Shown piece after piece: positions 20,501-43,745 of a stretch of 64,000 nt of DNA; position 1 is the stretch's first letter, and each line of letters starts with the position of its first letter. A program made the translations under genes and the position numbers. The notes beneath the pieces are model-generated. The model worked only from the letters and a program-made list of their open reading frames with translations, made no database searches and was not told the DNA's origin. The stretch is taken from assembly GCA_012514175.1 (NCBI GenBank), contig JAAZAU010000009.1, positions 32,283 to 96,282 on the forward strand, written 5' to 3'. The DNA comes from Parcubacteria group bacterium. Its GTDB lineage: Bacteria > Patescibacteriota > Minisyncoccia > Phycocordibacterales > WO2-35-19.

Positions 20501-21611
20501 ATCAGGTGGAGAGTTGGCAGGTGAGCAATCCCATGAACAATTTCAACAAGGAGGCAAAACACACAAGGGACCAGTTGAGAGTTTGTTTGGTAAACCGAAC
20601 GAGAATCTCTTAGAACAATTACGACAATCAGAGGAGATGATTGGTAGTAAATTTTCAACCAAAGATGAAAGCGGTAATCTTGTAGCAAGAGATATGAGTC
20701 AAAACGTTAGAGATAGGCTACAAAATGAGACATCTGTCATTGATCAAGCTCAAGCCCATCAGTTAGAAACTCTTGATGAGATCAGACGCCAACAACAGAC
20801 AAAGATGGAGGCGGTGTATAGAGAGATGTCTGGATTGGATGGTGAAGCGCTTCGGGTTTATGTAGATTATATGGAATCAACAAAAGAATTTATCACCGAT
20901 TTAACACAATTCTTTATTGACAAATTCAAACTTGATAAAGAGTATCTTCGTGAACGTAATCAAAGACGCGGTGCAAGATTACAAAGAGGATTTACCCAAA
21001 ATATTCTTGGGCAAAGAGAAGGGACTACTGTTATAAATCCCCGTTCCTTTGAACGTAAACGTCCACCAGAAAAACCGCAATTTGCTTGGACGCTTGTTAT
21101 AGACAATTCTGGTTCTTGTGGTGGTGAAATTATTGAACAAGAAAAGAAATTGGCTGTAGCTCTGGTTGAAGTGGCTAAGAAATTAGATATACCATTTGAA
21201 ATCGTTACTTTTGGAGGTCCTAATGAATTTACCTTTCTTAAGCAATTTGAACAAGATATGTTTGGAGATGATCTTCAAAAAATGGTATTATTACGGGCAG
21301 ACCAAGGCACTCCTGATGTAATAACCTTGGATGCGGCTTGTACAAGTATGAAAAAATATACTGACAAGTTTAGACGGTCGTATAATTTTGTGTATTTTAT
21401 GACTGATGGTGAATCTGGTGAAGGATCAATTCAGGAAGTTATAGAAAGACACAAGAAAGATATGGTTATTACTGGCATTGGCTTGGCCGAAGCGGCTCAA
21501 ACCATAGGGCAAACATGGGGCAAAAACGCAGTTGAAGTTCCTGATATAAAAAAACTATCTGACATTTTTATTAGAAAAATTGAAGAGCAGATAGATTCAA
21601 CATTTGATTAA
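17520..21611 (+). CDS. Giant (1363 aa) protein with N-terminal domain, ~900-aa E/Q/K/G-rich low-complexity acidic linker, and C-terminal von Willebrand factor A (MIDAS) domain
   Basis: C-terminal WTLVIDNSGSCGG...T..G...D...MTDGESGEG carries the DxSxS...T...D MIDAS pattern. The central region is a coiled-coil/disordered EQK-rich stretch plus a Gly-rich segment (GEGSGGEPGQPGSSGQGQGG...). Confidence 0.7.
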   Translation: MLTEPRDMQFTPEKPKTPEISQIEKDLNEIIPILAHGLVRRIEQKGFSGKVRVQAIAGDAWGVAKSPDNLTDVPNVIIYPRESLSGDLRLVNARLRHEIGNINYPIDVELNALRGWCYENEVAPELLTSLVEATHEASVNFLEMRNSHSSNPEENFRALYEQEINTQQIADNIPQYAPYKQVVDLTLLYSLSQTGLVPVEQFEQALSVAHPAVQEVFDKQTRSILDQSVRMAVPKAQVQLVRDFLWPKFSGLVALSCPAEGDKGKAETGEDLNTHSKQKELSPEAQVCAEKAKELQKKIQQMMQKMHQQAKDSKKPSLEKTDKQKKESPKRQEQQLSPAEKQERKEEEDLLAQNLQEQLQQAREKFEQLQKPDAKPEVPKPQEKPSSMQDIGKQAEQMRQEAERAMQEAQESGVQDEVTEEQLQQLKEQLEQLEEVAKQIAESGALEEELAKPEEEPIVYNIKEIGINEAELTPEQLETLQKTRAFAQNTSKVYRTAIRLLMKGYQEGNPKFTDEIMRKMMERSYDVPNFSIYGSQAGQEFLSQREELGVDGFSDNFLVNFQLPKPLARFWYKGGGGKKSVSVKEGEIEWGHFYRMCMPVIYSGVDRAQMSGLYLNRLNQFGQHDPKKYYYLWETINLWQEREKIEQEREKQKEEALKEMQEQLQQMREKLGEMRDQASGESEDQETDDQKSEKQGQQQGEQSGEKSNTQQAESSKQPAQSGEKHQNAEQKSGEQKQAGQEQQSSEQGSEKLSAQELQKQIEELKEQVNDMTKDAEERGDQAMADQLKEMKEQLEEMVEKLEQGEQGEKQGEDGGEGSGGEPGQPGSSGQGQGGDEGLGEGEGLGEGGQEQSQGGQPGKGVGQSKGAGQSGGQSGEMGGEGGEPGGMESGDGGMPSVQEMQEFLQQIQDALNQVKGQGGSGQEVTDQLIEQLSQMQESLESGATPQEMTRQMQDMMRKLSEAMSDMQSKEQEEDQGEGQPSEQSGESSGSESGESGGELAGEQSHEQFQQGGKTHKGPVESLFGKPNENLLEQLRQSEEMIGSKFSTKDESGNLVARDMSQNVRDRLQNETSVIDQAQAHQLETLDEIRRQQQTKMEAVYREMSGLDGEALRVYVDYMESTKEFITDLTQFFIDKFKLDKEYLRERNQRRGARLQRGFTQNILGQREGTTVINPRSFERKRPPEKPQFAWTLVIDNSGSCGGEIIEQEKKLAVALVEVAKKLDIPFEIVTFGGPNEFTFLKQFEQDMFGDDLQKMVLLRADQGTPDVITLDAACTSMKKYTDKFRRSYNFVYFMTDGESGEGSIQEVIERHKKDMVITGIGLAEAAQTIGQTWGKNAVEVPDIKKLSDIFIRKIEEQIDSTFD

Positions 21612-22160: not shown

Positions 22161-22183
22161 GCAAAAGCTATACTCAAGTGAGT

Positions 22184-22256
22184 GGCGGAGTAGTTTAATT
22201 GTTAAAATGTGATTTTTCATTAAGTCAAGATAGAGGTTCAAATCCTTTCTCCGCCA
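22184..22256 (+). tRNA. tRNA with atypical anticodon arm (anticodon UCA under canonical numbering; CAU if register shifted)
   Basis: Perfect 7-bp acceptor stem (GGCGGAG/CTCCGCC) and a T-arm AGAGGTTCAAATCCTTT. The D-loop lacks GG. The anticodon region GUGAUUUUUCAUUAAGUC pairs perfectly only with a 6-nt loop. Confidence 0.55.
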
Positions 22257-22261
22257 CCCGG

Positions 22262-22333
22262 AAGGACCTAGTCTAATTGGTAAAACATCATCATTACATG
22301 ATGAAGTTGGAGGTTCGAATCCTTCGGTCCTTA
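22262..22333 (+). tRNA. tRNA-Val (anticodon UAC)
   Basis: Acceptor AAGGACC/GGTCCTT. Anticodon stem TCATC/GATGA with loop ATTACAT. T-arm GGAGGTTCGAATCCTTC. Discriminator A. Confidence 0.65.
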
Positions 22334-22335
22334 CT

Positions 22336-28062: not shown

Positions 28063-30114
28063 ATGATAGGAACAATTTTTGTTATAAGTATACTAGGTAT
28101 AGTCACTGCTTATTTTTTAGCTAGAAGTGTCTTGAAATTGCCTACTGGCACTGAAAAAATGCGCAATGTTGCTCGCGCCATTCAGGAAGGCGCAGAAGCT
28201 TTTCTTAAAAGACAATACACAACCATTACCATTTTGTCTGTATCTTTGGCAGTTTTGATTTTTTTGGTTTATTACTTCATTGGTAATGTTGATCTTGGTT
28301 GGAAGACTTCTTTTTCTTTTATTTTGGGAGCTTTTGCTTCAGGGCTTGCGGGTTATATTGGTATGTATGTTTCTGTTAGAGCTAATATTCGCACTGCAGC
28401 AGCGGCAGAAACAAGTTTAAACAAAGCTCTTAGAACCGCTCTTAGAGGGGGTGCAGTTTCTGGTATTTTAGTGGTTGCTCTGTCTCTTTTGGGTGTGGCT
28501 GGTCTTTTTGTTTTGTTTGATGGTTTGAATAATCCTTTGCTTGTTCCGCTTGAAATTGTCGGCTTTGGTTTTGGTGCAAGCTTCGTGGCTCTTTTTGCTC
28601 AACTTGGAGGTGGTATTTATACCAAAGCAGCTGACGTTGGCGCTGATTTAGTAGGAAAAGTGGAAGCTGGAATTCCCGAAGACGATCCTCGTAACCCAGC
28701 TGTTATTGCGGATTTGGTTGGGGATAACGTTGGCGATTGTGCTGGTCGTGGCGCAGATTTGTTTGAATCTACCGCGGCGGAAAATATTGGCGCTATGATT
28801 TTGGGTATCGCACTTTTTCCAGTCTTTGGAATTTCCGGTATTATTTTCCCGCTTGTGGCTAGAGCTTTTGGACTCATTGCTTCTGTTATAGGTATTTTCT
28901 CAGTAAAGGCTAAAGAAGATGAAGACCCTATGAAAGCTCTCAATCGTGGGTATTATTTAACTACAGCTTTGGCTATTCTCGGACTCTTTGGCGCTACTTA
29001 TTATCTCTTACATGATCATTGGTTGTATTTGTTCTTAGCGGGAGTTGTTGGTGTTATCACTAGTCAAATATTCGTATTTCTTACTCAGTATTATACTGAA
29101 TATAAATATCGTCCAGTGAAAGATATTGCTGAAGCGAGCCAGACTGGGCCAGCTACCAACATTATTACCGGTTTTGCTGTTGGGCTTGAGTCTTCAGCTT
29201 TACCGATAATAGTTATTTCAGCTGCGCTTGCTGGTTCTTATTACTTGGGGAAATTAACCGGTATTGATGGTGGGGGACTTTATGGAACTGCTGTAGCCAC
29301 TATGGGTATGCTTGCCACCGCTGCTTATATTTTAGCTATGGATAATTTTGGTCCAATTACTGATAACGCTGGAGGGATAGCAGAGATGTCTGAATCCTCA
29401 AAAGAGGTGAGAGAAAAAACCGATAGACTAGACGCCGTTGGAAACACCACTAAAGCTTTGACTAAAGGATACGCTGTTGGTTCCGCAGCTTTAGCTGCAT
29501 TCTTGCTTTTCTCCGCTTATTTACAAGATGCTCATTTAACTTCTGTTGATTTGGCAAAACCAATGGTCTTTATTGGAGGTCTCTTAGGGGCAATGCTCAT
29601 CTTTTGGTTCTCGGCTTTGGCTATTAAAGCTGTGGGCAAAGCTGCTTACTATATTATTAATGATGTTCGGGCCCAGTTTAAAGAAAATCCAGGTATTATG
29701 GCTGGCACTTCAAAACCAGATTATGGTCGCTGTGTTGACATTGCTACTCGCGGAGCACTCAAGCAAATGATTTTACCTGGCGTTATTACTGTCGCTACTC
29801 CGGTTGTGGTGGGCTTTATCTTTGGTCCGGAAGCAGTTGGAGCCACTTTAATGGTTGGAACTATTGCGGGTGTTATTTTGGCTTTGGTGTTAAATACTGG
29901 AGGAGGTGCATGGGATAACGCAAAGAAATATGTTGAAACTGGCGCATTTGGAGGCAAAGGTTCTGATACTCATAAAGCTGCTGTGGTAGGTGACACCGTT
30001 GGCGATCCATTCAAGGATACAGCTGGACCTTCGCTTCATGTTCTTATAAAACTGCTTTCAACTTTGACTCTTGTTTTAGCTCCAATGTTTCTTGCTTGGA
30101 ACTTACTCGGATAA
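28063..30114 (+). CDS. hppA: Membrane-bound proton/sodium-translocating pyrophosphatase (V-type H+-PPase)
   Basis: Multi-TM 683-aa protein with H+-PPase signatures (GGIYTKAADVGADLVGKVE, DNVGDCAGRGADLFES, GDTVGDPFKDTAGPS). Confidence 0.85.
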   Translation: MIGTIFVISILGIVTAYFLARSVLKLPTGTEKMRNVARAIQEGAEAFLKRQYTTITILSVSLAVLIFLVYYFIGNVDLGWKTSFSFILGAFASGLAGYIGMYVSVRANIRTAAAAETSLNKALRTALRGGAVSGILVVALSLLGVAGLFVLFDGLNNPLLVPLEIVGFGFGASFVALFAQLGGGIYTKAADVGADLVGKVEAGIPEDDPRNPAVIADLVGDNVGDCAGRGADLFESTAAENIGAMILGIALFPVFGISGIIFPLVARAFGLIASVIGIFSVKAKEDEDPMKALNRGYYLTTALAILGLFGATYYLLHDHWLYLFLAGVVGVITSQIFVFLTQYYTEYKYRPVKDIAEASQTGPATNIITGFAVGLESSALPIIVISAALAGSYYLGKLTGIDGGGLYGTAVATMGMLATAAYILAMDNFGPITDNAGGIAEMSESSKEVREKTDRLDAVGNTTKALTKGYAVGSAALAAFLLFSAYLQDAHLTSVDLAKPMVFIGGLLGAMLIFWFSALAIKAVGKAAYYIINDVRAQFKENPGIMAGTSKPDYGRCVDIATRGALKQMILPGVITVATPVVVGFIFGPEAVGATLMVGTIAGVILALVLNTGGGAWDNAKKYVETGAFGGKGSDTHKAAVVGDTVGDPFKDTAGPSLHVLIKLLSTLTLVLAPMFLAWNLLG

Positions 30115-32686: not shown

Positions 32687-32690
32687 ATAG

Positions 32691-32763
32691 TGCGCGATAC
32701 AGGACTTGAACCTATGACCTTCCCGGTGTAAACGGGTTGCTCTACCAACTGAGCTAATCGCGC
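32691..32763 (-). tRNA. tRNA-Val (anticodon UAC)
   Basis: The reverse complement is GCGCGAT TA GCTCAGTTGGTAGAGC A ACCCG TTTACAC CGGGA AGGTC ATAGGTTCAAGTCCTGT ATCGCGC A. Confidence 0.75.
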
Positions 32764-33585: not shown

Positions 33586-33638
33586 ATTAAAACTTCAGTT
33601 TTTTGAAAAAAGCTCTAAATGGTGATATATTTTTGATT

Positions 33639-36600
33639 ATGGCAGAAGAAAAAACTAATAAATCTCGGATTGCTGAAAAAGAAGAAGAGATACTTAAGTT
33701 TTGGCAAGATAACAAAATTTTTGAAAAAAGTTTAGAAAAACCAGCACCAAATGGCGATTTTGTTTTTTATGATGGACCTCCTTTTGCAACAGGTTTGCCT
33801 CATTATGGACATATTTTACCCGGAACTATTAAAGATGTAATTCCGCGTTTTGAGACAATGCGTGGCAAGAAAGTGGTTCGTAAGTGGGGTTGGGATTGTC
33901 ACGGTCTTCCGGTAGAAAATTTGATTGAAAAAGAGCTTGGGCTTTCTTCAAAAAAAGATATTGAAACTTATGGTATTAAAAAGTTTAATGAAGCGGCGCG
34001 CAATTCAGTGATGCGTTATGCGGATGATTGGAAAAAAATTATTCCTAGAGTGGGTAGGTGGGTGGATATGGAAAACGATTACAAAACCATGGATACTACT
34101 TATACCGAATCGGTCTGGTGGGCTTTCAAGAATTTATTTAATAAAGGTTTGGTCTACAAAAGTTTTAAAGCAATGCATCTTTGCCCACATTGTGAGACCA
34201 CACTTTCTAATTTTGAGGTGAACCAGGGTTATAAAGACATTACCGATATTTCGGTTTATGTGAAGTTTAAAGTGGTGGGTGAAGAAAATACATATTTTCT
34301 AGCTTGGACCACTACACCATGGACTCTTCCCGGAAATGTTGCTTTGGCAGTAAATAAAGAAGTTGAATACGTTAAAGTGAAAAAAGATGGGCTATTTTTG
34401 ATAATAGCTAAAGAGTTAGCGGAGAAAGTTTTGAAAGACAATTTTGAAATTGTGGAAGCTTTCCTGGGGAAAAATATTATAAACAAAAAATACGAACCTC
34501 TATTTTCTTATTATAACAATGAGAAATTAGAAAATAGAGAAAAAGGTTTTAAAGTTTATCATGGAGATTTTGTGACCACCGAAGATGGCACTGGTATAGT
34601 GCATATTGCGCCAGCTTTTGGTGAAGATGATATGAATTTGGGCAAACAAGAAAATTTACCATTCATTCAGCACGTAAACATAGACGGGACTTTCAAAAAA
34701 GAAGTAACAGATTTTGCGGGAGAAAAAGTCAAACCCAAAGACGATCATCAAAAAGCTGACGTGGAAATTATAAAATTTTTAGCTAAAGCGGGCACACTTT
34801 TTGAAAAAGAAAAAATGATTCACTCGTATCCACATTGTTGGCGTTGCGAGACTCCGCTTTTGAATTACGCTACCACTTCTTGGTTCGTGAAAGTGACGGA
34901 TTTGAAAGACAAGCTTATTAAAATAAATGAAAAGATTTCCTGGGCTCCAGAAGATATAGGTCAAGGTCGTTTTGGTAAATGGCTTGAAGGTGCGAGAGAT
35001 TGGGCGATTTCTCGTTCACGTTACTGGGGAGCGCCTTTGCCGGTTTGGCAAAATGAAAAAGGCGATCCTACTGTTATTGGCAGTATTGAAGATTTGAAAA
35101 AATATCTTCCTCAAAGCGGAAACAAATACTTTTTAATGCGTCATGGTCAATCAGTTTCAAATACAAAGCGCCAGATTAGTGTTTTTGCTTCTGGAAATGA
35201 TCCACTTACAGAAAAGGGGAGAGAACAAACCATAAAAGCTGCTAAAGATTTAAAAAAAGACAGGATAGATGTAATTATTACCTCTCCATTTATGAGAACT
35301 AAACAGACAGCGGAAATAGTCGGAGAGGAAATAGGTTTCCAAGGTAAAATAGAAGAAGATGCTAGATTGGAAGAATTAAAAATTCCGGGTTGGCACGGTA
35401 GGAAATGGGGTGAGTTTCAGAGTAAATTTTCTAATAAAGAACGTTTTGAAATGCGTTTAGAAGATTCAGAAAACTGGGAAGATGTTCGCAGACGAATTTC
35501 TGAATTTATGTTTGAGATTGATAAAAAATATCAAAATAAAAATATTTTACTTGTAAGTCATGGTGGTTCGTTAGCTCTATTGTTGTATGCTTCTCGAGGT
35601 TTGTCGGTTAAACAAATGATGAATGTTAAGCAAGATGGTTTATTTAAAAACGCAGAAGTAAAGAAAGTTGATTGGTGGCAATTTCCACATAATGAAAATT
35701 TTGAAATAGATTTACACAGACCCTATATTGATGAAATAAAATTAATAAACGAAAAAGGTGAACCTCTAAAAAGAGTTCAAGAAGTTTTTGATTGTTGGTT
35801 TGAGTCTGGTTCAATGCCTTATGCGCAATTTCATTATCCGTTTGAAAATAAAAAATCTTTTGAAAAGAAAAATTTTCCTGCGGAATTTATCGCTGAAGGT
35901 TTAGACCAAACCAGAGGGTGGTTTTATACACTCTTAGTTTTAAGTGTGGGGCTTTTCAAAAAGAGTCCTTTTAAGAGTGTGGTGGTAAACGGTATGGTTT
36001 TGGCCGAAGATGGTCGCAAGATGTCCAAAATGTTGAAAAATTACCCAGAGATTTCTTACATTGTAGATAAGTATGGTGCTGATAGTTTGCGCTACTACCT
36101 TATGTCTTCTCCAGCGGTAAAAGCTGAAGATTTAAATTTTTCTGAAAAAGGAGTAGATGAGGTTTCTAAAAAAATTATTTTGAAACTTGAAAATGTGCTT
36201 TCTTTTTATGAAATGTATGCCGATAAAGACGCGATCAATAAAATAAAAAGAGAAAATCCTGAACACATCTTGGACAAATGGATTTTAGCAAGATTTGGTG
36301 AGCTTCAAAAAAATATAACAGAATCACTTGAGGCACGTCGTATTGATAGTGCTTCAAGGCCGATTTTAGGTTTTATTGATGATTTTTCTACTTGGTATAT
36401 TCGGCGCTCTAGAGACAGATTTAAATCCGAAAATCTAGAAGACAAGAATAACGCTTTAGTTAACACAAGATTTATTTTGGTGGAGTTGGCTAAGTGTATG
36501 GCGCCTTTTATGCCGTTTTTCGCAGAATCAATATATTTAAGATTAAGAACAGAAGAAGATCTTGAAAGTGTGCATCTTTGTGATTGGCCTAAAGAATTAA

Positions 36601-37097
36601 AAGTTGACAAGGGGATATTGAAAAATATGGAAGAAGTTAGAAAGGTTGTTTCTTTAGCATTAGAAAAAAGAATGACTGCTAACATAAAAGTTAGACAACC
36701 TTTAAACGAGTTGAGTATCAAGAATTTTGAATTAAAAGGCAAAGAAGAATATTTAGAACTTATTAAGGATGAGGTGAATATAAAAAATATTTCTTTTGAT
36801 GAAAAATTGGAAACAGAAGTTTTACTTGATACTGAAATAACTCCTGGGCTACAAAAAGAGGGAAATGTCAGAGAGTTTGTAAGAGCTGTTCAAGAACTTC
36901 GTAAGAACAAAAATTTGAAACCTCAAGATAGCATAAAACTTTTAGTTGAGACAAATGAACTGGGTAAGGAGTTTTTGAGAAGTGTTGAAAATGAAATTGT
37001 AAAACCCACAAATATTTCTGAAATTGTATTTGAGAATACTGAAGGGGAAGAAATTAAAATCGGTAATTTAGAGTTTAAAGTAAAAATTGAAAATTAA
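33639..37097 (+). CDS. ileS: Isoleucyl-tRNA synthetase (eukaryote-like/type 2) carrying an internal ~200-aa histidine-phosphatase (PGAM-like) domain insertion
   Basis: HIGH region PPFATGLPHYGHIL, editing-domain blocks, FDCWFESGSMPYAQ and KMSKML. Residues ~505-700 (nt ~35115-35703) read YFLMRHGQSVSN...ITSPFMRTKQTAE...LVSHGGSLALL, which are RHG and SHG histidine-phosphatase signatures. This segment lies between IGSIEDLKK and DLHRPYIDEI, which are normally ~15 aa apart. Confidence 0.85.
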   Translation: MAEEKTNKSRIAEKEEEILKFWQDNKIFEKSLEKPAPNGDFVFYDGPPFATGLPHYGHILPGTIKDVIPRFETMRGKKVVRKWGWDCHGLPVENLIEKELGLSSKKDIETYGIKKFNEAARNSVMRYADDWKKIIPRVGRWVDMENDYKTMDTTYTESVWWAFKNLFNKGLVYKSFKAMHLCPHCETTLSNFEVNQGYKDITDISVYVKFKVVGEENTYFLAWTTTPWTLPGNVALAVNKEVEYVKVKKDGLFLIIAKELAEKVLKDNFEIVEAFLGKNIINKKYEPLFSYYNNEKLENREKGFKVYHGDFVTTEDGTGIVHIAPAFGEDDMNLGKQENLPFIQHVNIDGTFKKEVTDFAGEKVKPKDDHQKADVEIIKFLAKAGTLFEKEKMIHSYPHCWRCETPLLNYATTSWFVKVTDLKDKLIKINEKISWAPEDIGQGRFGKWLEGARDWAISRSRYWGAPLPVWQNEKGDPTVIGSIEDLKKYLPQSGNKYFLMRHGQSVSNTKRQISVFASGNDPLTEKGREQTIKAAKDLKKDRIDVIITSPFMRTKQTAEIVGEEIGFQGKIEEDARLEELKIPGWHGRKWGEFQSKFSNKERFEMRLEDSENWEDVRRRISEFMFEIDKKYQNKNILLVSHGGSLALLLYASRGLSVKQMMNVKQDGLFKNAEVKKVDWWQFPHNENFEIDLHRPYIDEIKLINEKGEPLKRVQEVFDCWFESGSMPYAQFHYPFENKKSFEKKNFPAEFIAEGLDQTRGWFYTLLVLSVGLFKKSPFKSVVVNGMVLAEDGRKMSKMLKNYPEISYIVDKYGADSLRYYLMSSPAVKAEDLNFSEKGVDEVSKKIILKLENVLSFYEMYADKDAINKIKRENPEHILDKWILARFGELQKNITESLEARRIDSASRPILGFIDDFSTWYIRRSRDRFKSENLEDKNNALVNTRFILVELAKCMAPFMPFFAESIYLRLRTEEDLESVHLCDWPKELKVDKGILKNMEEVRKVVSLALEKRMTANIKVRQPLNELSIKNFELKGKEEYLELIKDEVNIKNISFDEKLETEVLLDTEITPGLQKEGNVREFVRAVQELRKNKNLKPQDSIKLLVETNELGKEFLRSVENEIVKPTNISEIVFENTEGEEIKIGNLEFKVKIEN

Positions 37098-37109
37098 AAA
37101 TTTATTAAC

Positions 37110-37706
37110 GTGTATCACAAACATCACACTAAAGGTATTATTATTTCAAACAAAATAGAAGCATCTGACAGTTGCAGGGTTTCTATTTTTACTGAGGATT
37201 TTGGTGTTATTTCTGCCAGAGCGCAAGGAGCTAGAACGTTACATAATAAATTTCGTGGGGGCGTGCAGGAGTTTTGTGTGGGAGAATTTTCTTTAGTGCG
37301 TGGTAAGACTGGTTGGCGAGTTGTTGGCACAAGGGCTGAAAAAAACTTGTTTGAAGATTTTAAACATTCTCCGGAAAAATTGAAAATTGTTTTTAATGTT
37401 CTCAACCTTATAAAAAAATTAGTGGCTGAAGATTTGCCCACACAAGCAGAAGAGAAACATAGCCTACTTTTTGATACAATTGCTAAATTCTTTGTTTTTT
37501 TACAACAAGTTAAAGAAAATGAAATAGCTTTAGCAGAATGTTTAACGTTGATGCGCGTTTTACATATCTTAGGTTATATGAGGTATGATCCGGAGTTAGC
37601 CGTCCCACTTTCGTCTTCAGAGATAGCAATGAAAGATTTGGAAACTATTGCTCCGTGTCGTTTTAAAATAGTGACACTGATAAACGAGTCACTCAGAGCG
37701 GTTTGA
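37110..37706 (+). CDS. recO: DNA repair protein RecO-like (short form)
   Basis: N-terminal OB-fold pattern (GIIISNKIEASDSCRVSIFTEDFGVISARAQGARTL..F) resembles the RecO N-terminus. 198 aa. Confidence 0.45.
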   Translation: MYHKHHTKGIIISNKIEASDSCRVSIFTEDFGVISARAQGARTLHNKFRGGVQEFCVGEFSLVRGKTGWRVVGTRAEKNLFEDFKHSPEKLKIVFNVLNLIKKLVAEDLPTQAEEKHSLLFDTIAKFFVFLQQVKENEIALAECLTLMRVLHILGYMRYDPELAVPLSSSEIAMKDLETIAPCRFKIVTLINESLRAV

Positions 37707-37743
37707 TTTTTTTAATCTAAAACTTAATGATATAATTCCTTTA

Positions 37744-39684
37744 ATGAAGTTTGATGGTCAAAAATTAGAAAAATTGGAGAAAAAACTCTATTCCAGAGAA
37801 GCGTTAGATGTTCCCGAGACCGATCGGTCAGAATTTAAAAGTGATAAAAAAGACGATTTTAATTTAAAAGAAAGTTGGCAAGATTCTCAAAAAAGCAATT
37901 TTGATGAGCTGGCTATGAAAGTTTCAAAAATGGCTCGTAATAAACACAGTTTTGTAAAGAAAATTTTTATTGCTTCAATACTGTTTTTCTTGGTGGCTGC
38001 TGGCGTAGCCGCCTTTGTGTTTTTTGGTGGTGTAAATCTTGTTTCTTCCAAAAATGTTGATATAAAAATTTTAGGACCTCTCGCCATAGGAGGTGGACAG
38101 GAAGTTTCTTTAGATATCAATGTTATTAATAGCAACAACACTGATCTCAAAGCGGTTTCTTTGTTGGTTGAATATCCAGAAGGTACCAGATCAACCACTG
38201 ATCTTTCTGATGAGTTGCATCAACAAAAATTTACATTAGGAACAATAAAATCAGGGGATAGTTGTAGTCAAAATATTCAAGCGGTATTTTTTGGTGAAAA
38301 GGACACAACTAAAGAATTGAAGATTTCTTTGGAATACAGAGTAGAGAATTCTAGCGCGTTATTTTATAAAGAAAAATTTCACGAACTCACCATTAGTTCG
38401 GCACCAATCATTATTACCCCTACTTATCCTAAAGAAGTTAATTCTGGCCAAAACTTTAATTTCAATATAGAAATTGCTTCAAATTCAAAAGACAAAATAA
38501 ACGATTTTTTGGTTAGTGTTGATTATCCGTTTGGTTTCGTTTTTGCTGGTAGCTCACTGAGTCCTTCATATGGTGATAATATTTGGAGATTTTCAAATAT
38601 AACACCAGGAGAAAAGAAAACGATATCCATAAAAGGGAGTATTATTGGTCAAGACAATGAAGAACGGGTTTTCAAAATAAATGCTGGAACAGCTGACGAA
38701 AATGATGAACGAAGAATCGCTGTTCACTTTTCAGATTTAATGGAATCAATTATGGTGAAAAAGCCTTTTATTGGGTTGAATGTTTTAATTGATGGTCAAA
38801 GAGGCAATTTGGCTGTTCGGGGAGGTAGACAGGTTTTGACTGAAGTGTTTATAGTAAATAATTTACCTACAAGGCTTTTTGATGCTAATGTTAAAGTTTC
38901 TCTTAAAGGGGAGGCTTTTGATAGACTTTCAGTGTCGCCTAGCAACAACGGATTTTTTCAATCCCTGGACAATACAATTTTTTGGGACAAAAGAGCAGTG
39001 TCTGCGTTTTCCGATATGGCTCCAGGATCTCAAGAAAAAATTTATTTTAGACTAGAACCACTTCCTCACAATAAGATATCTAGCGGAGCTAAACCAGAAA
39101 TAGAAATGGTTATAACTGCCAGCGGAGAAAGGGTGTTAGAATCTGGTTCGGTTGAAACAGTTTCTTTCTCAGAAACTAGAAAAATGGTTTTGGCTACGGA
39201 TTTAACTTTAATTTCAAAGATAGTAAGGTCTATTGGTAATATTGAAAACTCTGGTCCAATACCCCCAAAAGCGGATGTACCAACCACTTACACTGCAATT
39301 TGGGGTCTAATCAACACTTTTAATCAAATGAGCAATGTTGAAGTTAGGGCAACCTTACCTCCGTATGTTAAATGGACTGGAGTTAAAAGTCCAACAGGTG
39401 AAGCGCTCTCTTTTAATCGGGTTACCAACGAAATTGTTTGGAATGTTGGCTCTGTTTTGCCTAACACCGGTTTGGGATCTTCTCAAAAAGAAGTTCAGTT
39501 TCAATTAGAGTTTTTACCAAGCACAAGCCAATTAGGGACAACAGTATCTCTCTTAGGAGAAACAACGGTTTCTGGTTTTGATAAAGTCGCTGGTCAGAAA
39601 ATTGAGTTTAAAATTAATGGTTTAGATACTGGTTTTTACAACGATCCAAGTTTTCGTCAAAATGATGACAAAGTGGTTCAATAA
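37744..39684 (+). CDS. Membrane-anchored large extracytoplasmic protein (646 aa), function unknown
   Basis: Charged N-terminus followed by a single TM helix (IFIASILFFLVAAGVAAFVFFGG). The rest is beta-rich with S/T/N. Confidence 0.55.
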   Translation: MKFDGQKLEKLEKKLYSREALDVPETDRSEFKSDKKDDFNLKESWQDSQKSNFDELAMKVSKMARNKHSFVKKIFIASILFFLVAAGVAAFVFFGGVNLVSSKNVDIKILGPLAIGGGQEVSLDINVINSNNTDLKAVSLLVEYPEGTRSTTDLSDELHQQKFTLGTIKSGDSCSQNIQAVFFGEKDTTKELKISLEYRVENSSALFYKEKFHELTISSAPIIITPTYPKEVNSGQNFNFNIEIASNSKDKINDFLVSVDYPFGFVFAGSSLSPSYGDNIWRFSNITPGEKKTISIKGSIIGQDNEERVFKINAGTADENDERRIAVHFSDLMESIMVKKPFIGLNVLIDGQRGNLAVRGGRQVLTEVFIVNNLPTRLFDANVKVSLKGEAFDRLSVSPSNNGFFQSLDNTIFWDKRAVSAFSDMAPGSQEKIYFRLEPLPHNKISSGAKPEIEMVITASGERVLESGSVETVSFSETRKMVLATDLTLISKIVRSIGNIENSGPIPPKADVPTTYTAIWGLINTFNQMSNVEVRATLPPYVKWTGVKSPTGEALSFNRVTNEIVWNVGSVLPNTGLGSSQKEVQFQLEFLPSTSQLGTTVSLLGETTVSGFDKVAGQKIEFKINGLDTGFYNDPSFRQNDDKVVQ

Positions 39685-39764
39685 CAAATTATTCTAAAAC
39701 TTTTCTCTTGTTGTAAGAGAAGGCGAGGTGGGTTATCATGGGTTGTATGAAAGAAGAAAATAAA

Positions 39765-41147
39765 ATGGAGAAAATAACTTCTCTTTGCAAAAGAAGGGGA
39801 TTTATTTTCCAAGGTTCAGAGATTTATGGGGGACTTGGGGGTGTTTATGATTATGGTCATTATGGCACGTTGCTTAAAAATAACATAAGAGACGCTTGGC
39901 AAAAAAGTATGATCCAAGATAGAGATGATGTTTTTATTTTGGATAGCGCTATTTTTGTGCACCCAACCACCTGGGAAGCTTCTGGTCATATAGGTAATTT
40001 TGATGATCCTCTTATTGAATGTAGGAAATGCCACAACAGAATGAGAGCCGATAAAATCCTTGAAGATTTTGGAGTGGATGCCGATAAGATGCCTCTTGAT
40101 TTTATAAATGCAGAATTAGACAAACTTCGTGAATTAAAACATTTGAAGTGTAGTTCTTGTGGGCAGACCGATATCACTTCTGCTAAAAAGTTTTCTCTTA
40201 TGGTGAAATCAAATCTCGGTTCTCCAACAGATGAACTTAAAGAAGAAAATGTTGTTTATCTAAGACCAGAGACGTGTGGTGGGATTTATCTGCAATATAA
40301 AAATACCCTAGACTCGCTTCATCCGAAATTGCCTTTTGGTATTGCTCAAATAGGTAAAGCTTTCAGAAACGAAATTGCTGCTAGGCAGTTTATTTTTAGA
40401 ACTAGAGAATTTGAACAAATGGAGATGCAATATTTTATACGACAAAAAGACACCAAAAAAATGTATGATATGTGGAAAGAGATAAGAATGAATTGGTACA
40501 TAGAAAATGGTATTCCTGCTGAAAAATTAACCTGGTACAAGCATGAAAAGTTGGCCCATTATGCTTCTGAGGCTTACGATATTAAATACAATTTTGAATG
40601 TTTTGGGATTTTTGATGAGGTTGAAGGTCTTCACACAAGAGGCGATTGGGATTTAACACAACATAGTAAATTTTCTGGAGTTGATCTTTCTTATTTTGAC
40701 GAAGAAAGCAAAGAGAGATTTGTGCCACATATAATAGAAACATCAGCGGGACTCAACAGGTTGGTGCTTATGTTTCTTGATTTTGCTTATACCGAAGATG
40801 AGCTCGGTGGCGATAAACGCGTCTTTTTAAAAATACCAAAACATTTAGCTCCAGTAAAAGTAGCCGTGTTTCCGCTTTTGAAAAACAAACCAAAATTGGT
40901 TGAGAAAGCTAAGGAAATTTATAATTCCTTGAGAAAAGAATTTATGTGCGAGTTTGATGATAATGGTAATATTGGGAAAAGATATCGCAGACAAGATGAA
41001 ATCGGCACACCATATTGTGTTACTGTGGATTTTGATACCTTAGAAAAAAATGAAGGAGTAACAGTTAGAGATAGGGACACAGGAGAACAAGAAAGGGTTT
41101 CAGAAAAAGAATTAGTTGAATATTTGAAAGAAAGAATTTTTAAATAG
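39765..41147 (+). CDS. glyQS: Glycyl-tRNA synthetase (alpha2 dimeric type)
   Basis: The N-terminal RRGFIFQGSEIYGGLGGVYDYGHYG block and class II motifs (FRNE, GLNRLVLMFLD) are characteristic of GlyRS. The ORF-track start (39738) is probably 9 codons too early. Confidence 0.85.
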   Translation: MEKITSLCKRRGFIFQGSEIYGGLGGVYDYGHYGTLLKNNIRDAWQKSMIQDRDDVFILDSAIFVHPTTWEASGHIGNFDDPLIECRKCHNRMRADKILEDFGVDADKMPLDFINAELDKLRELKHLKCSSCGQTDITSAKKFSLMVKSNLGSPTDELKEENVVYLRPETCGGIYLQYKNTLDSLHPKLPFGIAQIGKAFRNEIAARQFIFRTREFEQMEMQYFIRQKDTKKMYDMWKEIRMNWYIENGIPAEKLTWYKHEKLAHYASEAYDIKYNFECFGIFDEVEGLHTRGDWDLTQHSKFSGVDLSYFDEESKERFVPHIIETSAGLNRLVLMFLDFAYTEDELGGDKRVFLKIPKHLAPVKVAVFPLLKNKPKLVEKAKEIYNSLRKEFMCEFDDNGNIGKRYRRQDEIGTPYCVTVDFDTLEKNEGVTVRDRDTGEQERVSEKELVEYLKERIFK

Positions 41148-41198
41148 TTCTCCTCTTTTTTACTTTCTACTTTTTCTTTTTTAATTTATACTTGTTAT

Positions 41199-42293
41199 AT
41201 GGCTATTCGTCGCTCAAGTGAAAAAATGATCCAGATAAGCACTGGGACAATAATAAAAGCTCTTCTGGTTATTTTAATTTTTGGGGCAATTTATTATTTG
41301 AGAGATATCGCTTTGGTGGTAGTGCTTTCTATTGTTATTGCCTCAGCGGTAGAGCCAGGTACACAATGGTTTTTGCGACGCAAAGTGCCAAGAGTCTTAG
41401 CGGTTCTTCTTATTTATTCTATTGTTATTTTGATTTTGGTTGGCGCGTTTTATTTTCTCTTTTTGCCTATTTTAAATCAATCGTCTTCTTTGCTGTCATC
41501 TCTGCCAGGGTATCTTGGTGAACTCCAAGTTTGGAATCCTTTACAAAATAGTTCTTTCTTTTCATCCAATCCTACAATTCAAGGATTTTCTGAAACATTT
41601 TCACTTTCTCAAATTGTAGAACAGATAAATTCTGCTATCTCAAGTTATTCTGAAGGTTTTTTCTCAACAGCCAGCACTATTTTTGGAGGTATTCTAAGTT
41701 TTATTTTGGTTATTGTTTTGTCTTTTTATTTATCAGTAGAGCCTGAGGGGATTTCTGGTTTTCTACGCATTATCACTCCCGCCAAAAACGAAGAGTATGT
41801 GTTAAGTCTCTGGAAAAGATCTCAACGAAAAATTGGTCTCTGGATGCAAGGACAAATTGTGTTGGTGGTAATTGTGAGTATGCTTGTCTTTTTGGGTTTA
41901 ACTTTGTTACGTGTTGAAAACGCTCTTATTTTAGCGATGCTTGCTGGTGCGTTTGAAATCATTCCTATTTTTGGACCTATTCTCGCCGCTATTCCGGCTG
42001 TAATTTTAGCTTTAGTGTCTGATGGTATGACTAGCGCTATTTTAGTTATTGGTCTTTATATCATAATTCAACAATTTGAAAATCAGCTTATTTATCCATT
42101 AGTGGTTAGAAAAATTGTCGGAGTTCCGCCACTGGTTTCCATTTTAGCTCTTATTATTGGAGCTAAACTTGCTGGTTTTGTGGGGGTTTTGATTTCAGTT
42201 CCGCTCGCAGCTATGCTCATGGAATTTTTGAATGATATTGAGAAAGATAAAATTGCGGAAGTGGAGCGCTTGAAAATTGCTAAGCAAAAATGA
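41199..42293 (+). CDS. AI-2E family transporter (PerM/YhhT-like, UPF0118)
   Basis: Eight TM segments and the conserved ...FEIIPIFGPILAAIPAVILALV... block. Confidence 0.6.
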   Translation: MAIRRSSEKMIQISTGTIIKALLVILIFGAIYYLRDIALVVVLSIVIASAVEPGTQWFLRRKVPRVLAVLLIYSIVILILVGAFYFLFLPILNQSSSLLSSLPGYLGELQVWNPLQNSSFFSSNPTIQGFSETFSLSQIVEQINSAISSYSEGFFSTASTIFGGILSFILVIVLSFYLSVEPEGISGFLRIITPAKNEEYVLSLWKRSQRKIGLWMQGQIVLVVIVSMLVFLGLTLLRVENALILAMLAGAFEIIPIFGPILAAIPAVILALVSDGMTSAILVIGLYIIIQQFENQLIYPLVVRKIVGVPPLVSILALIIGAKLAGFVGVLISVPLAAMLMEFLNDIEKDKIAEVERLKIAKQK

Positions 42294-42308
42294 TATCCTT
42301 CTTTTGTT

Positions 42309-43745
42309 GTGTCTAAAACATTTTATATAACTACAACTTTGCCTTATGTAAATGCCGATCCGCATGTTGGTTTCGCTATGGAGATTATTAGGGCTGATGT
42401 TATTGCGCGAACCAAAAAGATTCAAGGTTTTGAAGTATTTTTCAATACTGGCACCGACGAGCACGGAGCTAAGATTTATGAAAAAGCTAAAGAACTCGGT
42501 AAAGATCCTCAAGATTTTGTGAATGAACTAGCGGAAAAGTTTCGAGGTCTCATCTCTTTGCTTCAAATTTCTCCAGACATTCATTTTATTAGAACAACAG
42601 ACGAAGCTCACAAAAAAACAGCTCAAAAATTTTGGAGAGTTTGTAACCAAAATGGTTATATTTATAAGAAAGCTTACAAAATAAAATATTGTGTGGGTTG
42701 TGAGCTTGAAAAAACAGATTCTGAATTGGTAGATGGTAAATGCCCAATACATCCCAACAGAGAAATTGAATTCATTGATGAAGAAAATTATTTTTTTAAA
42801 TTCTCTGCTTTTCAAAAACCACTTTTAGATTTTTATAAAAAACAACCGAATTTTGTAGTGCCAGATTTTCGTTTTAACGAAATCAAAGCTTTTGTTGAAA
42901 GGGGATTAGAAGACTTTTCTATTTCTCGTGTTAAATCTAAAATGCCTTGGGGTATACCTGTGCCAAACGATGAAGATCAGGTAATGTATGTTTGGTTTGA
43001 CGCTTTAGTCAATTATATTTCAACTTTGGGTTGGCCTGATAATAAAGACACTTTTAAAAGGTTTTGGATAGAAGGTAGCCCGGTTCAGTATTGTGGTAAA
43101 GATAATTTGCGTATGCAGTCTGCTATGTGGCAAGCGATGCTTTTAGCTGCTGGTTTACCTAATTCACATCAAATAGTGATAGACGGATTTTTTACCGGTG
43201 AAGGTGGTGTGAAAATGTCTAAATCTCTTGGTAATACCGTTGATCCTTATGCAGTGGTTCAAAATTTAGGCGCTGAAGCTTTAAGATATTTTGTTTGTGC
43301 GGAAGCTTCAATGTTTGAGGACAGTCCAGTTTCTATGGGTTTAATAAAATCTGCTTATAATGCTAAGTTGGCTAATGGTTTGGGCAATCTGACTTCGCGC
43401 ATAATGAAGATGGCACAAGACCATCTCGCACTTCCAATTACTTCTCTGTCTGATGATATACCAGAACAATTTTTTGCCGAGTTGGAAAAATTTGAAATTG
43501 GAAAAGCTTGCGATTTGATTTGGAAAGAAATTGGAGATATGGACAAGTTTATCCAAGAAGCTCAGCCTTTTAAAGTAGTCAAGACAGACAAAGAAAAGGG
43601 TCAAGAAATGATTTCAAATTTAGTCAAAAGGTTATATTCGGTTGCAATAATGCTTGGTCCAATACTTCCAGAAACTTCGGAAAAAATAAAAGAACTTGTT
43701 AAAACAAACAAAACCCCCGAAAAACCTTTGTTTGAGAGAAAATAA
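42309..43745 (+). CDS. metG: Methionyl-tRNA synthetase (short form without C-terminal tRNA-binding domain)
   Basis: The N-terminal TTLPYVNADPHVGFA block (HIGH-region variant), a Zn knuckle CVGC...CPIH, KMSKSLGN, and an anticodon-binding helical domain. Confidence 0.8.
   Translation: MSKTFYITTTLPYVNADPHVGFAMEIIRADVIARTKKIQGFEVFFNTGTDEHGAKIYEKAKELGKDPQDFVNELAEKFRGLISLLQISPDIHFIRTTDEAHKKTAQKFWRVCNQNGYIYKKAYKIKYCVGCELEKTDSELVDGKCPIHPNREIEFIDEENYFFKFSAFQKPLLDFYKKQPNFVVPDFRFNEIKAFVERGLEDFSISRVKSKMPWGIPVPNDEDQVMYVWFDALVNYISTLGWPDNKDTFKRFWIEGSPVQYCGKDNLRMQSAMWQAMLLAAGLPNSHQIVIDGFFTGEGGVKMSKSLGNTVDPYAVVQNLGAEALRYFVCAEASMFEDSPVSMGLIKSAYNAKLANGLGNLTSRIMKMAQDHLALPITSLSDDIPEQFFAELEKFEIGKACDLIWKEIGDMDKFIQEAQPFKVVKTDKEKGQEMISNLVKRLYSVAIMLGPILPETSEKIKELVKTNKTPEKPLFERK

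Follow-up and report, generated by a model that had tools for sequence, protein, structure and literature searches.

Type-2 isoleucyl-tRNA synthetases (IleRS) are the eukaryote/archaeal-like, mupirocin-resistant form of the enzyme, and solved examples such as P. megaterium IleRS2 (8C8V), T. thermophilus IleRS (1ILE) and yeast IleRS (8WND) carry a turn of only 3 residues at the tip of the CP3 subdomain. Small branch-1 histidine phosphatases (HP), represented by PhoE/YhfR of Geobacillus stearothermophilus (1EBB, 1H2E), PspA, GpgP and HFP, are stand-alone enzymes of about 190–210 amino acids with a short lid. Here we describe the joining of these two kinds of enzyme in the ileS product of a Parcubacteria group bacterium (Paceibacteria/Minisyncoccia), encoded on a 64,000-nucleotide stretch of contig JAAZAU010000009.1 (positions 32,283 to 96,282, forward strand; hereafter the window, whose own numbering is used throughout). 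In this protein, unlike in the solved type-2 IleRS, the CP3 turn is occupied by an enzymatic domain of 195 amino acids. Few enzymes have been studied as thoroughly as the aminoacyl-tRNA synthetases (aaRS), and catalogues of the domains appended to them exist. We found no account of an aaRS–HP fusion in the literature open to search, and a phosphatase domain in any synthetase goes unmentioned in both the AARS Online domain paper and a 2026 preprint on IleRS evolution.

An HP domain embedded in the CP3 subdomain of a type-2 IleRS

The gene and the borders of the insert comprise the following features.
33603..37097, + strand: ileS open reading frame (ORF), a type-2 IleRS with an embedded phosphatase; 1164 amino acids from a TTG codon, uninterrupted
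33801..33812, + strand: HIGH signature of the synthetic site, here HYGH (residues 67–70); H67, Y68 and G69 invariant and H70 nearly so in 60 aligned homologues
34308..34325, + strand: TTTPWT (residues 236–241), Thr-rich editing-site motif of the CP1 editing domain, conserved
35106..35690, + strand: inserted HP module (residues 502–696) at the tip of the CP3 subdomain
35685..35735, + strand: conserved return junction PHNENFEIDLHRPYIDE, in which PHN is specific to fused forms and DLHRPYID is the normal CP3 return segment
35790..35810, + strand: DCWFESG strand of the second Rossmann half, where normal IleRS sequence goes on about 30 residues past the insert
36018..36032, + strand: KMSKS-type loop KMSKM (residues 806–810), conserved across homologues

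This was the only class Ia IleRS-like gene in the 64-kb window. A public copy, NLE07275.1 (NCBI label 'class I tRNA ligase family protein [Parcubacteria group bacterium]'), was identical over 1152 amino acids; therefore the ATG at 33639, which gives a protein of that length, is probably the true start. The Pfam architecture consisted of tRNA-synt_1 in two halves with His_Phos_1 between them, Anticodon_1 and DUF5915, and the NCBIfam scan placed the protein in the ileS equivalog TIGR00392 with 899.7 bits against a cutoff of 621.4. The closest PDB relatives of the whole protein were IleRS2 and eukaryotic IleRS, down to E=3e-227 for 8C8V. As in described type-2 IleRS, the Rossmann halves, CP core, CP1 editing domain, CP2, CP3, anticodon-binding domain and C-terminal DUF5915 followed one another in order, and both the HIGH and the KMSKS signatures were present. 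The editing motif GTGIVH at residue 329 was conserved across homologues, and CP1 editing is presumably retained, because TTTPWT is conserved as well. An AlphaFold2 model of the full-length protein (pLDDT 87, pTM 0.78) exhibited the IleRS2 fold; Foldseek searches with it returned IleRS again, with a target-normalised TM of 0.83 to 8C8V and 0.91 to 1ILE.

The Pfam match to His_Phos_1 (PF00300) covered residues 510–691 (35130–35675; E=4e-33, 115–120 bits against a cutoff of 21.7) and spanned positions 2–181 of the 194-position profile. When the protein was aligned to P. megaterium IleRS2 (8C8V), residue 501 was paired with residue 477 and residue 697 with residue 481, so that about 195 amino acids stand in for a turn of about 3 residues. 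Residue 500 corresponded approximately to residue 497 of Candida IleRS, and published domain boundaries of that enzyme assign residues 473–534 to CP3; thus the insertion lies within the CP3 subdomain. CP3 of T. thermophilus IleRS bears a zinc motif, and the zinc-knuckle cysteines, present in the T. thermophilus and P. megaterium enzymes, have been lost from the window enzyme, all four of them.

Several observations bear on whether the insert is a genuine part of the mature protein. The GC content was even across both borders, and an identical protein was encoded on 22 contigs from four sources (NCBI, JGI, ENA and Logan). In a few ENA assemblies the gene is annotated as several fragments; the breaks, at residues 718/738 and 582/589, are away from the insert borders, and one of the fragmented gene calls covers both junctions. 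The Pfam scan of the protein returned no Hint/intein family, and the HP domain occupied the entire insert. The insert starts with LPQSGNKYF, without an N-terminal Cys or Ser, and its terminal His-Asn, which superficially resembles an intein C-terminus, is followed by Glu rather than Cys, Ser or Thr. An earlier note on this DNA had proposed an HP domain inserted in frame, at 35115–35703, in a type-2 IleRS, with RHGQS and SHGG signatures, a TSP...R...E spacing and no intein splicing motifs. The continuous frame, the domain scans, the mapping onto solved structures, the invariance of catalytic residues, and the fold prediction and fold search described below all agree with this proposal; its coordinates were correct to within a few codons, and RHGQS, TSPFMRT and SHGG lie at residues 513–517, 560–566 and 652–655, respectively. 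The frameshift or assembly join that the note had allowed for is at odds with the position of the ENA breaks and the 22 identical contigs.

Catalytic residues, fold and family of the insert

An alignment of 121 family sequences revealed that the residues expected of an HP active site are retained almost without exception.
35139..35147, + strand: RHG motif with Arg513 and the nucleophile His514 (each 121/121) and Gly515 (118/121)
35295..35297, + strand: Arg565, second phosphate-pocket arginine (SPFxRT motif), 121/121
35373..35375, + strand: Glu591, aligned with the proton-donor Glu of PhoE-type phosphatases, 120/121
35559..35561, + strand: His653, second catalytic histidine (SHGG), 121/121

Arg513, His514, Arg565, Glu591 and His653 line up with their counterparts in PhoE. 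Glu623 (121/121) and Asn520 (120/121) were likewise conserved. The mean column conservation of the insert was 0.56, compared with 0.75–0.80 for the IleRS catalytic core; as judged from the alignment, strong purifying selection acts on the active site of the HP domain in IleRS. Among 169 HP copies, the catalytic signature was intact in 134, including nearly all tandem copies.

The AlphaFold model of the insert alone was of high confidence (pLDDT 93, pTM 0.90) and exhibited an HP fold, and in the full-length model both the insert and its short linkers were confidently placed (linker pLDDT about 89–92). The best fold matches in the PDB were PhoE 1H2E, PspA 4IJ5/4IJ6, GpgP Rv2419c 4QIH and HFP 9MMH (TM 0.74–0.80, E ~1e-13), and the target-normalised TM was 0.70–0.77 for small phosphatases, compared with 0.56–0.61 for phosphoglycerate mutases. 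The nearest solved relatives by sequence were PhoE/YhfR (1EBB, 1H2E; E=1e-11), the riboflavin-pathway phosphatase 9MMH, PspA and CobC. None of the equivalog models for cofactor-dependent phosphoglycerate mutase (dPGM) reached its cutoff (dPGM_arch 83–89 bits vs 225, pgm_1 33 vs 81.7, other gpmA models 23–50 vs 300–420), and the same held for the alpha-ribazole phosphatase CobC (TIGR03162, 89 vs 162.9), the phosphoserine phosphatase PspA (NF045917, 66 vs 350) and the phosphohistidine phosphatase SixA (TIGR00249, 41 vs 74.5). The domain, of about 185 amino acids, stops after the last beta-strand and lacks the C-terminal tail of dPGM; the sequence after the Glu is E-L-K-I-P-G, in place of the mutase motif E-R-x-Y-G.

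The scores below cutoff, together with the fit to the PhoE, PspA and GpgP folds, identify the insert, at the level of sequence and model, as a small branch-1 HP of the PhoE/PspA/GpgP-like type and not a mutase. The label 'PGAM/CobC-like' given in the earlier note therefore stands as far as the branch-1 HP superfamily is concerned, but not in its reference to PGAM and CobC, since the domain belongs with the small-phosphatase group and failed the equivalog cutoffs. We infer from the residues and the model that the module is catalytically active as a phosphomonoesterase and follows the canonical route through a phospho-His, in which His514 would attack a phosphate held by Arg513, Arg565 and His653, and Glu591 would protonate the leaving group, while the IleRS would go on charging and proofreading tRNA-Ile.

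Distribution and insertion sites of IleRS fusions

All 120 best homologues (55–100% identity) joined IleRS domains with PF00300, and the segment between residues 500 and 700 measured 191–211 amino acids in every one of them. Because alignment of the insert alone contained no conserved stretch of 7–10 columns, an alignment of the junction was used to scan one genome per GTDB species; this junction scan revealed at least 176 species with the fusion, labelled Nomura-, Zambryski-, Taylor-, Yanofsky-, Wildermuth- and Wolfebacteria or Paceibacterota/Minisyncoccia. A profile of the insert, searched against 1.84 billion cluster representatives, returned 394 clusters (50% identity level) at E<=1e-30. 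The best 150 representatives consisted of 103 IleRS, 10 of which contained two HP copies, 2 valyl-tRNA synthetases (ValRS), approximately 28 free-standing proteins of 185–205 amino acids, and fragments; thus, among these 150, IleRS and ValRS were the sole fusion hosts of the HP subfamily.

Placement of the HP copies on the numbering of the window protein, with inspection of the flanks by eye, revealed four insertion sites in IleRS.
Site A, approximately residues 501–504/697: tip of CP3; the majority site and the case of the window
Site B, approximately residues 718–724: directly past the second Cys pair of CP3
Site C, approximately residues 742–751: between DCWFESGSMPYA and FIAEGLDQTRGWFY
Site D, approximately residues 876–884: entry to the anticodon-binding domain

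These were used as A, A+B, A+D, B+C or C+D. Approximately 20 of the 73 site-A fusions retained the knuckle cysteines, which points to secondary loss in the sub-lineage of the window, and two enzymes with HP at other sites (P0147 and P0156) kept them as well. We therefore rejected the idea that HP replaced the CP3 zinc knuckle as a general rule.

Three further proteins deserve mention. One IleRS of 1325 amino acids (P0072; NCBI label 'GNAT family N-acetyltransferase [Patescibacteria group bacterium]') contained a GNAT domain in the CP1 editing region, inserted after the residues equivalent to approximately 260–280 of the window protein, together with HP in CP3, and thus three extra or auxiliary catalytic folds in one synthetase. 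On a 13.8-kb contig of a fused-type genome (L034, 5524–6276), HP was found in an ORF of only 251 amino acids, which may reflect a frameshift or a broken or split ileS. A protein of 450 amino acids from the EukProt transcriptome of the dinoflagellate Gymnodinium smaydae (P0256) contained two tandem HP domains of this subfamily, as a result of either bacterial contamination or eukaryotic acquisition.

A free-standing HP gene upstream of insert-less ileS

In 7 of 8 examined members of the free-standing group, the HP gene (about 190 codons) ended 2–10 bp before an insert-less type-2 ileS encoding 946–987 amino acids, within the conserved gene array AA_kinase–argS–HP–ileS–(x)–recO. The free-standing proteins were about 34% identical to the IleRS inserts, which is the same closeness as that of the inserts among themselves (50% clusters), and their family comprised at least 325 clusters (90% identity level), labelled Staskawiczbacteria, Parcubacteria or Patescibacteria. 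Among 80 fused loci, 75 contained exactly one HP copy, located inside the long ORF, and no separate HP gene was present within 6 kb at any of the 80. The window shares the downstream part of the array.
37110..37706, + strand: recO-like gene (RecO_N), conserved downstream neighbour of ileS

Its presence marks the locus as an orthologue of the split HP–ileS–recO loci. The synteny shared by the window is ileS–recO–DUF11-like, and the upstream neighbour of its ileS is an RluA-type gene, not an HP gene.

The free-standing HPs had an isoelectric point (pI) of 9.8, compared with 6.0 for the inserts, and the IleRS of the split lineages were also basic (pI 8.6–9.7). At five split loci (L082, L086, L087, L092 and L093), HP (pI about 9.6–9.8) and IleRS (pI 8.6–9.7) were both strongly basic; at a sixth (L094), the IleRS was basic (pI 9.0) and the HP had a pI of 6.6. 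In fused lineages, HP and IleRS were both acidic (pI about 5.6–6.0). This looks like a proteome-wide difference in charge between related Parcubacteria; since the basic character extends to the synthetase in the split lineages, the contrast is lineage-wide and uninformative on the role of HP, and we rejected the idea that a docking charge was exchanged for a covalent link.

HP copies in ValRS

One ValRS (P0215, located at L085 703–5319) scored 849 against the valS equivalog cutoff of 704 and contained two HP copies, the second of which sits in a hairpin homologous to IleRS site A. Of its 120 closest ValRS relatives, 73 contained HP (58 single, 13 double, one triple and one quadruple), mostly in CP3, and these relatives are labelled Peregrinibacteria or Gracilibacteria. 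The ValRS of Paceibacteria, such as a 931-amino-acid Nomurabacteria protein, lacked HP. The largest arrays were found in a truncated ENA protein of 1161 amino acids with four copies (P0121) and in one of 1477 amino acids with three (P0287), and the catalytic residues were kept in most copies of the tandem arrays. A subgroup with a single HP (P0317, P0327, P0328, P0331, P0334, P0339, P0380 and others) exhibited the signature RHNGGRSEN, in which the Glu donor is replaced by Ser and the second His by Asn, a pattern suggestive of domains kept after their catalytic function decayed. On CP065009.1 (Peregrinibacteria), TrmD, the tRNA (m1G37) methyltransferase, was fused to a GNAT acetyltransferase domain (L090, 11462–12688, − strand).

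Proposed role of the phosphatase and alternative explanations

The window protein is, by all sequence comparisons made here, a real and conserved IleRS of bifunctional appearance, and one HP subfamily is tied to IleRS and ValRS by fusion, repeated insertion and operon adjacency. The pairing takes three forms, namely a gene upstream of an insert-less ileS, one or two copies in IleRS at four sites, and one to four copies in ValRS; the insert at the CP3 tip is the commonest form of this lineage-wide pairing with the two sister synthetases. The neighbour-gene form, the several insertion sites and the ValRS fusions extend the proposal of the earlier note. Gene fusion and conserved adjacency are a classic signature of functional partnership, and the pattern of fusion, adjacency and recurrence predicts a new functional link between the phosphatase and IleRS/ValRS. 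We consider it probable that the HP nested in the type-2 IleRS of the window is active, and that this phosphatase subfamily is functionally partnered with IleRS and ValRS. Because the attachment sites differ, one of them being in the anticodon-binding domain, and because a trans-acting form exists, we infer that selection has acted on co-localisation or stoichiometry with the synthetase and not on a fixed active-site geometry.

To our knowledge, phosphomonoesterases have not been linked biochemically to the charging of tRNA with Ile or Val. We propose, tentatively and with a good deal less conviction than the partnership itself, that the phosphatase may provide a third catalytic activity in the IleRS/ValRS cycle of Patescibacteria, acting on the bound tRNA (for instance by clearing a 2'/3'-terminal phosphate ahead of charging), a nucleotide product or a regulatory phospho-site. 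By analogy with other systems, its substrate might be a terminal phosphate on a synthetase-bound ligand, for instance a nucleoside monophosphate or a tRNA whose 3' end bears a 2'/3'-phosphate, a suggestion that we regard as rather speculative; the next candidate would be a regulatory phospho-residue on the synthetase itself. In E. coli, the CCA-adding enzyme includes an HD domain that acts as a phosphatase on tRNA ends; synthetases are modified by kinases of the HipA type; and SixA, PGAM5 and Sts-1 are HP members that dephosphorylate proteins. The roles offered in the earlier note, namely hydrolysis of (p)ppGpp, Ap4A or a nucleotide by-product, or moonlighting in regulation, are likewise speculative. 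A role as a pyrophosphatase is weakly disfavoured, since the window encodes a membrane H+-translocating pyrophosphatase (28063–30114, + strand; H_PPase, 898 bits; 3.5 kb upstream of ileS), by which removal of pyrophosphate would already be covered.

Several points weigh against a functional partnership with an active phosphatase. All functional statements on the HP module rest on sequence and predicted structure. An HP gene upstream of ileS could favour recombination into ileS, which weakens the case for selection behind the repeated insertions. One free-standing HP (L089, 2107–2679) lies away from ileS, between unannotated proteins of 557 and 554 amino acids. In an unbootstrapped neighbor-joining tree of the host synthetases, one split clade was basal and the split-type loci L082 and L093 were nested among fusions; this tree does not settle the number or direction of transitions between the split and fused states. 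Among the 58 single-copy ValRS inserts, the Glu donor was lost in 17, and the second His was also lost in about ten, indicating that catalysis is dispensable in some lineages while the domain persists. Two insert-less valS loci (CP065009.1 and one Gracilibacteria contig) had no HP gene nearby, so that the operon form is documented for ileS alone.

These points feed into the alternatives. In the main one, an ordinary metabolic or broad-specificity phosphatase would simply hitch-hike in or beside ileS and valS for reasons of co-expression, stability or compaction, with no link to aminoacylation; we give this explanation a minor but appreciable chance. It agrees with the broad-specificity or metabolic nature of the nearest characterised relatives and the absence of any equivalog match, with the multiple attachment sites and the free-standing form, which show that fixed geometry is not required, with the repeated chance of recombination offered by the upstream gene, and with the further odd fusions found here in the Candidate Phyla Radiation (CPR), namely GNAT in IleRS and in TrmD. 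It is harder to reconcile with the restriction of hosts to IleRS and ValRS among the best 150 representatives, with the use of one CP3 site in both paralogues, IleRS and ValRS, across two CPR classes, and with the tight operon spacing and the tandem arrays with intact catalytic sites. The domain could instead act only as a structural module (a rigid spacer, a substitute for CP3 and its zinc knuckle, or a phosphate- or tRNA-binding pad) for which catalysis would be irrelevant. Such a role would suit the loss of the four knuckle cysteines from the window enzyme, the decayed ValRS inserts, the confidently modelled short linkers and the conserved PHN junction motif; however, the catalytic residues are invariant in IleRS while the remaining domain drifts, about 20 of the 73 site-A fusions retain the cysteines, a free-standing version exists, and the mildly acidic inserts (pI about 6, a value confounded by lineage) do not resemble an RNA-binding pad. 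Given the invariant residues, a purely structural role is unlikely for the IleRS insert, and it may apply to the decayed ValRS copies.

The remaining alternatives carry less weight. Enzymes of the GNAT (MccE/RimL) and phosphoramidase (HinT) types detoxify aminoacyl-adenylate mimics, and by analogy the phosphatase might protect the synthetase from a phosphorylated or adenylate-mimicking inhibitor of IleRS/ValRS, as a GNAT may do in some IleRS. The GNAT-containing IleRS family NF040702 in NCBIfam and the protein with both GNAT and HP lend this idea some plausibility; HP enzymes, however, require a terminal phosphate, which known aaRS inhibitors lack, and the class-wide spread looks housekeeping rather than patchy as in resistance traits, so that we judge self-protection very unlikely. 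An embedded glycolytic mutase, to which the weak dPGM matches and the common fold might point, is more improbable still, in view of the missed cutoffs, the length, the missing tail, the E-L-K-I-P-G sequence and the lower TM values. An assembly chimera, a frameshift, an intein or a mobile insertion removed from the mature protein has next to no probability: the fragmented ENA calls and the terminal His-Asn could be read in its favour, and the 22 contigs, the at least 176 species, the lack of Hint matches and intein-type border residues and the uniform composition at the borders contradict it. The mutase, intein and assembly-artefact explanations are thus all but excluded, and a type-2 IleRS partnered with a nested, active HP remains the preferred explanation.

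If the proposed third activity is confirmed, these enzymes would form a new trifunctional class of class Ia synthetases, dephosphorylation would be required in Ile/Val charging, and the conserved HP–ileS operon would be the unfused form. Knowing which substrate is used may bring to light a new step in the maintenance of tRNA or aaRS in ultra-small, host-dependent bacteria. In public annotation, these proteins appear as 'class I tRNA ligase family protein' or 'isoleucyl-/valyl-tRNA synthetase'; because the NCBI label is only the former, an essential IleRS or ValRS is under-annotated in hundreds of genomes.

Other features of the window

Outside the ileS locus, the window contained rRNA and tRNA genes, further synthetase genes and two large ORFs.
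10828–13581, + strand: large ORF of 917 amino acids, no Pfam match
17520–21611, + strand: large ORF of 1363 amino acids, a C-terminal VWA domain only
22183–22259, + strand: tRNA with the four-base anticodon 'tcat' (ARAGORN; enlarged loop around CAT), confirmed as a tRNA by Rfam
22262–22334, + strand: tRNA-Val(TAC), with the 'tcat' tRNA directly upstream
32690–32763, − strand: second tRNA-Val(TAC)
33603–43745: synthetase-rich region with, within 10 kb, IleRS, a class II enzyme with tRNA-synt_2b/HGTP_anticodon (39738–41147) and a short MetRS of 478 amino acids (42309–43745)
58719–62519, + strand: 23S rRNA, a span of 3801 nt compared with a 2925-nt model, which is covered end to end
62609–62714, + strand: 5S rRNA, after the 23S rRNA

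The difference between 3801 and 2925 nt indicates that about 0.9 kb is inserted in the 23S rRNA, as an intron or another insertion; rRNA insertions are common in CPR bacteria. No match to 16S rRNA was found within the 64-kb window. The 'tcat' tRNA could be an unusual Met or Ile2 (CAU) tRNA. The second tRNA-Val(TAC) and a tRNA-Arg(TCT) lie within 1 kb upstream of the ileS locus.

Comparison with known systems

The inserted domain resembles the PhoE group in that the RHG motif, the second Arg, the Glu donor and the second His are all present. It differs in that identity to these enzymes is only 22–27% and in its context, since the known enzymes are stand-alone, whereas the HP described here is nested in, or encoded beside, a tRNA synthetase. 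Among proteins that join a small branch-1 HP to a nucleic-acid enzyme, it can be compared with the bifunctional RNase H/CobC-like acid phosphatases (NF005567; Rv2228c/SCO2299 type); those, however, are end-to-end fusions with RNase H, and the insert scores 82 bits against the cutoff of 326 for that model.

Within the synthetases, class Ia insertion modules such as the CP3 zinc knuckle, the leucine-specific domain of LeuRS and the INS in ARD2 of IleRS2 are likewise lineage-variable inserts in surface loops. Whereas these are small, non-catalytic and tRNA-binding or structural, the insert described here is a complete second enzyme (third, with editing) with its active site intact. The sole comparable precedent is the NCBIfam model NF040702 ('isoleucine--tRNA ligase, N-acetyltransferase domain-containing'), in which an unrelated catalytic domain is also nested within IleRS. 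The window protein lies outside that family, scoring 329 bits against 1999 and having no acetyltransferase match in Pfam, and the two arrangements differ in both site and chemistry: the GNAT domain of NF040702 is located in the CP1 region and has a different fold, whereas the HP of the window protein is located in CP3.

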